Of a stretch of 304 nucleotides of DNA, positions 94 through 250 are shown in pieces. A program made the translations under genes and the position numbers. The notes beneath the pieces are model-generated. The model ran no database searches. It was not told the origin of the DNA and worked only from the letters and a program-made list of their open reading frames with translations. Position 1 is the first letter of the stretch; each line of letters opens with the position of its first letter. The DNA comes from a phage: the sequence record AH001323.2; one strand, written 5' to 3'.

Positions 94-150
94 ATGAACG
101 CGATTAAGCGAGGTGAAACACGAGGCTGTATTTACGGCAAAACNCGNAAA
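94..150 (+). CDS. 5' end of an unidentified ORF starting at ATG 94 and running into the assembly gap
   Basis: ATG at 94-96 is the first start codon in frame 1 after the in-frame TAG at 61-63. A weak Shine-Dalgarno-like GAGA lies at 85-88, 5 nt upstream. The frame is open to the gap, reading [19 protein letters not shown]; codons ACN (142-144) and CGN (145-147) are unambiguous Thr and Arg despite the N. It sits 2 nt after the stop of the upstream ORF. No homolog recognised. Confidence 0.3.
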
Positions 151-250
151 NNNNNNNNNNNNNNNNNNNNNNNNNNNNNNNNNNNNNNNNNNNNNNNNNN
201 NNNNNNNNNNNNNNNNNNNNNNNNNNNNNNNNNNNNNNNNNNNNNNNNNN
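151..250. other. assembly or scaffold gap: 100 consecutive N, true length unknown
   Basis: An uninterrupted run of exactly 100 N, preceded by isolated ambiguous calls at 144 and 147, typical of a degraded contig end joined by a fixed-size placeholder. Confidence 0.9.

Follow-up and report, generated by a model that had tools for sequence, protein, structure and literature searches.

Content of the window

The window, that is, the whole stretch of 304 bases analysed here, consists of bacteriophage Mu right-end DNA except for its first nine bases. From left to right it holds nine outside bases (1-9), the Mu right end attR (10-65, - strand) with the MuA sites R1 and R2, a part of the DNA-modification gene mom (62-137, + strand), a degraded tail (138-150, + strand), a run of N (151-250, no strand) and a Mu non-coding stretch (251-304, + strand) that carries a damaged site R3. 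The blocks on either side of the first junction share the tetranucleotide AGCT at 62-65. An Rfam scan of the window gave no match.

A character count established the make-up of the gap region. Single N calls were found at 144 and 147 and an unbroken run of 100 N at 151-250, as the initial annotation had reported, and no other ambiguity codes are present in the window. Clean bases number 143 to the left of the gap (150 positions with the degraded tail) and 54 to its right. Under the GenBank/AGP convention (NCBI submission rules), 100 N stand for a gap of unmeasured length, and the window likewise has exactly 100 N between two pieces of unmeasured spacing. The run has the conventional round length of a placeholder, and both the count and the homology to Mu on its two sides uphold the earlier description of a placeholder join. 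It is a deliberate convention, and chance is not at issue. Unlike the general case covered by the convention, the true spacing in the window can be deduced from homologues, at approximately 118 bases against the 100 that were entered.

The left piece with its degraded tail comes to exactly 150 positions and the gap to exactly 100, round numbers more suggestive of a set read length or of formatting than of biology. A left piece of exactly 150 positions could suggest a modern short read, a type of read that the indel-type errors of the window fit poorly.

The Mu right end and the bases outside it

The block at 10-65 is the reverse complement of Mu 36661-36717, and bases 12-65 match Mu 36714-36661, on the opposite strand, with 100% identity over 54 bases. 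MuA sites were located by a scan with the consensus annotated in the D108 record. R1 (19-35, + in the window) has no mismatch to this consensus and is identical to Mu 36691-36707, while R2 (41-57, also + in the window) has one mismatch and is identical to Mu 36669-36685. The block thus has the terminal TG...CA of attR with consensus-matching R1 and R2 sites beside the terminus. The Mu terminal TGAAGCGG reads TGAGCGG in the window and is one base short, with the TG terminus at 10-11.

Bases 1-9 (ATTGGCTAT, no strand) fall beyond the Mu end in the alignment and are presumably DNA into which Mu had inserted, or a cloning junction. The host flanks of S17-1, of LY180 (an E. coli W derivative) and of plasmid pE16EC1016-8 were considered as their source and rejected, as the sequences differ. 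Mu has a single copy of the 9-mer ATTGGCTAT, at 35098-35106, close to where the gin CDS begins (35092), against approximately 0.3 occurrences expected by chance. This match, next to the start of the gin invertase CDS, is at chance level and need not mean anything; a real one would point to a rearrangement within Mu.

The mom fragment

Bases 62-137 correspond to Mu 36403-36479, which falls inside the mom CDS of Mu (35877-36602), and they encode Mom residues 176 to 201, approximately. Identity is 94.8% to Mu (NC_000929/AF083977), SfMu and E. coli prophages. In the mom frame, the translation of bases 64-126 agrees with Mom 177-197 at 19 of 21 residues, and it is on this agreement, together with the DNA identity, that the assignment to mom is based. 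Full-length Mu Mom matches Pfam PF25680 (2.4e-75); the 29-residue fragment in the window is too short to score.

The annotation of mom, a characterised gene, is inconsistent across E. coli genomes. Most RefSeq E. coli genomes list its product as 'hypothetical protein', and other E. coli records call it 'tRNA(Gly)-dependent adenine aminoacyltransferase Mom' or 'Mom family adenine methylcarbamoylation protein'.

Differences between the window and its relatives were called from an alignment of the window with Mu, S17-1, LY180, D108 and pE16EC1016-8. All differences between the window and Mu are private to the window; Mu, S17-1, LY180, D108 and pE16EC1016-8 agree with each other at those positions. 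In this comparison with Mu and four relatives, bases 62-115 are 100% identical to Mu, and bases 116-137 carry three substitutions and one deletion. Within mom, the private changes at 116-127 turn GGQ into GET, and the loss of one base near 127 would shift the reading frame. Since all relatives agree against the window, we read the changes at 116-127 as probable errors, and the frameshift is probably a read error and not the mark of a mom pseudogene.

Bases 138-150 hold no usable information. At the expected position in Mu, the tail at 138-150, which includes N144 and N147, matches at 3 to 4 of its 11 informative bases, and its best placement anywhere in Mu 36470-36625 gives 7 of 11, which is also chance level. 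Nor could the degraded stretches 138-150 and 251-258 be placed above chance elsewhere in the missing interval. The earlier description of a degraded contig end was therefore borne out, with errors at 116-137 and a match no better than chance at 138-150.

The right flank and site R3

The right flank (251-304, + strand) corresponds approximately to Mu 36611-36664, a non-coding stretch between mom and the right end; Mu has no annotation after 36602. Bases 251-254 cannot be aligned to Mu. Bases 255-301 align on the + strand to Mu 36615-36659 with 91.5% identity, and past base 254 the flank shows two one-base insertions, two substitutions and one 2-base deletion. Mu carries MuA site R3 at 36646-36662 (+ strand); its equivalent in the window, at approximately 286-302, is damaged by indels. 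The window terminates exactly on an AGCT (301-304).

The initial annotation also described a downstream ORF truncated by the gap. No gene corresponds to it. The - strand ORF at 104-271 is made almost wholly of X, and the open + frame at 251-304 lies downstream of the mom stop, in non-coding Mu sequence that is closed by stops in each of the three + frames; in the window the frame is open only because of private indels. The gene that the gap does cut is mom, which enters it from the upstream flank.

Expected length and content of the missing segment

Both flanks of the gap lie on the + strand of Mu and are collinear there, where the last confidently aligned positions enclose 135 bases (36480-36614). 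The same interval occupies 117 positions in the window, made up of 13 degraded positions, 100 N and 4 further degraded positions. As 135 bases in Mu stand against 117 in the window, the 100 N are a convention and not a measurement. The block from AGCT to AGCT measures 262 bases in Mu vs 243 in the window. From comparison with Mu, the missing length would be 135 bases when counted between the last trustworthy positions, and approximately 118 if the degraded positions are in register. The gap should contain the last 40 or so codons of mom (Mom residues 202 to 241, approximately), the TGA stop (Mu 36600-36602) and approximately 10 non-coding bases.

The initial annotation had raised the possibility that the contig broke at repeated sequence, for instance an IS element, an rRNA operon or a duplicated gene, which the gap would then conceal. 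Mu is a transposable element and at times multi-copy, a general point in favour of such a break, and the stretches that could not be aligned to Mu (138-150 and 251-254) could in principle be the edges of foreign DNA. A contig break of this kind would predict that the expected gap sequence is multi-copy in each genome, and this is not what was found. Mu 36480-36614 is present in 62 of 5,426 complete E. coli genomes, at a median of one and a maximum of three places per genome, and no second copy exists within Mu. Because it occupies a median of one place per genome and is uncopied within Mu, the segment is not an IS element, an rRNA operon or another dispersed repeat. Most likely, judging from these homologues, the gap covers single-copy, unique Mu sequence.

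The flanks themselves point the same way. In gap-free relatives they belong to the same locus and are collinear, as would be expected on both sides of a placeholder. The same collinear arrangement was seen in the prophages of S17-1 and LY180 and on plasmid pE16EC1016-8, and just 135 bases separate the flanks in Mu and in every E. coli prophage found. Insertion of an element would have to be accompanied by a deletion of approximately 130 bases, because the right flank resumes at approximately Mu 36611 and not at the break. Moreover, private errors begin at base 116, before alignment to Mu is lost, as they would in a read of decaying quality. We consider a repeat-induced break highly improbable. 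The sequence behind the gap may genuinely diverge from Mu, as it would after an insertion coupled to a deletion, and such a difference would be compatible with the unalignable stretches at 138-150 and 251-254.

The suggestion of hidden repeats was thus not sustained, as Mu and the 62 E. coli genomes join the two flanks by one unique segment, at a median of one copy. By homology, the flanks are thus connected by the short, unique and collinear sequence that the initial annotation had itself named as grounds for refutation. The initial annotation had further held that distance and orientation between the flanks were not established. Across the gap this does not apply, as the flanks are on the same strand and a spacing of approximately 118 to 135 bases can be derived. 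The doubt about orientation is not without ground, but the orientation anomaly of the window lies at 62-65.

Loss of sequence quality toward the gap

In the left flank errors rise toward the gap, from none in 62-115 to four in 116-137 and to a chance-level match in 138-150. Such a gradient would be the product of two reads losing quality toward each other, and not of a clean contig ending at a repeat. In the sequence of events that we propose, two partial reads of a single AGCT-bounded block of approximately 262 bases (Mu 36403-36664) would have been obtained inward from each end. The accuracy of each read would have fallen with distance, and the unread middle would have been filled by the conventional 100 N. 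This block is joined to the neighbouring AGCT-bounded piece (Mu 36661-36717, with R1-R2, plus the nine outside bases) in the wrong relative orientation.

An inverted junction at the shared AGCT

Every Mu genome has the order mom, R3, R2, R1 and terminus; R3 is a + strand site, and R1 and R2 lie on the - strand. The window begins with the block that holds the terminus, R1 and R2 (1-65), and this block is inverted vs the one with mom and R3 (62-304), such that R1, R2 and R3 are all on the + strand. The native attR arrangement, with R3 inside R2 and opposite to R1 and R2, and with mom just inside R3, is not present; mom follows directly after R2. The switch in orientation falls on the AGCT that is common to both blocks (62-65, no strand), and here the window differs from every Mu genome examined.

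The AGCT sites account for the extent of the rearranged piece. This part of Mu has just two copies of the tetranucleotide, at 36403 and 36661, and the window likewise has just two, at 62 and 301, which makes 62-304 exactly one AGCT-bounded block. When 62-304 is reversed and joined to 1-61, native Mu runs on without a break from the right end inward, except for a 2-base loss beside AGCT. AGCT is the site of AluI, and AluI cuts leave blunt ends. The likeliest cause of the inversion would be that AluI-type (AG^CT) fragments were misoriented at compilation, or were blunt-ligated head to head in cloning.

The inverted arrangement was not recovered from any collection searched. The 28-base junction (window 52-79) is absent from genome, viral and metagenome contig collections. 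No record among the E. coli, phage and plasmid collections covers at least 80% of bases 1-143, and among complete E. coli genomes, phages and plasmids none has 12-59 and 62-137 joined on one strand. Likewise, no contig in genome, metagenome or viral collections carries two inverted R1 sites 300 to 330 bases apart.

The main alternative to the mishandling of a restriction fragment is that the junction at 62-65 arose as a polymerase template switch or a library chimera at the 4-base palindrome AGCT. The window would then be an artefact of the whole-genome-amplification or end-repair type and essentially one read pair joined by 100 N. Segments that are approximately 258 bases apart are indeed joined in inverted orientation at a short palindromic microhomology, the left piece comes to exactly 150 positions and has its N calls toward the 3' end, and the absence of the junction from all other sequence searched is also what a chimera would give. 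A chimera alone does not explain why the record ends exactly on the second AGCT (301-304), and indel-type errors in both flanks would be unusual for short-read chemistry. We regard this origin as unlikely.

A second alternative treats the arrangement as genuine. The window would be part of a Mu-derived miniature element of approximately 370 bases, with two inverted right ends (R1-R2) and only a fragment of mom and R3 between them. An inverted copy of R1-R2 would lie upstream of the mom 3' fragment and be followed by the normal right end, with approximately 370 bases between the two inverted R ends, and an assembler would have stopped at 304 as the second R1-R2 copy collapsed onto the first. 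The window does stop exactly where the repeated arm would start, and MuA efficiently transposes DNA placed between inverted R1-R2 ends in vitro (PMC3145075). Against this stand the collections described above, in which neither the junction nor an inverted R1 pair at 300 to 330 bases was seen in genome, metagenome or viral contigs, nor the arrangement in any complete E. coli genome, phage or plasmid record. The low quality of the record also makes an artefact far likelier, and we give a genuine element very little credence.

Taken together, the window is likely to be a low-quality record of the Mu right end, in which a gap that is a data artefact covers the ordinary 3' end of mom and AGCT-bounded pieces were placed in the wrong orientation. 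The identity, strand and coordinates of the blocks, the error gradient, the single copy of the missing segment and the absence of the junction elsewhere are direct results; the cause of the gap, and the handling of restriction fragments as the cause of the inversion, are what we infer.

Comparison with Mu, D108 and MuA adapters

The closest known sequence is the Mu right end (NC_000929 / AF083977, 36403-36717), with which the window shares the MuA site sequences and the Mom peptide. It differs from Mu in the inverted R1-R2 block, in one missing terminal base, in its private errors and in having approximately 118 to 135 bases as N. D108 or another Mu-like phage was considered as a better reference and rejected; identity to D108 is 92.2% and the region after mom differs. 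The window sides with Mu at both diagnostic positions and after mom, and it is without the D108-specific gene 56 region.

Bases 12-59 are also 100% identical to the termini of unrelated plasmid records (Streptomyces, Borrelia and Acinetobacter). The same end sequence is present in the 50-base MuA R1-R2 adapters of in-vitro transposition and library kits, which are identical to window 12-59, and it serves to load the Mu transposase in library construction (PMC5517011). An adapter remnant was accordingly considered as the source of 12-59 and rejected, as native Mu sequence continues beyond the 50-base adapter. Adapter remnants depart from Mu right after GAAAAC, whereas the window goes on with the native TTTAGCT, followed by mom and R3. 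Because native sequence follows R1-R2 in this way, the window derives from phage or prophage DNA.

Two observations concern public records. Many 'complete' plasmid records (Streptomyces, Borrelia miyamotoi, Acinetobacter and E. coli) have the 50-base Mu R1-R2 sequence in a terminal or near-terminal position, and the bases after it resemble barcodes and are not from Mu; in Streptomyces althioticus NZ_CP109216.1, for example, the 50-base Mu end is at 26-75 and non-Mu sequence comes next. These plasmid termini look like untrimmed MuA-transposase library adapters in public assemblies. The plasmid record OR771667.1, from an uncultured bacterium, carries the Mu R-end twice, with the listed match under a dfrA1 annotation, and looks like an artificial mini-Mu marker transposon inserted in a plasmid capture.

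Biological significance

The gap is an artefact of the record within sequence that is already well characterised, with nothing unusual behind it. The record gives a copy of the well-known Mu right end that is rich in errors and probably misoriented. The ORFs of the window, the apparent frameshift in mom and the architecture of the end are no basis for inference. For a natural non-autonomous mini-Mu with inverted right ends the current evidence provides no support. If such a miniature element existed, it could in principle be mobilised by MuA in trans and would be a natural counterpart of the artificial R1R2-flanked mini-Mu transposons. The window would be of biological interest only if the inverted right-end arrangement exists in a genome as a natural non-autonomous mini-Mu.
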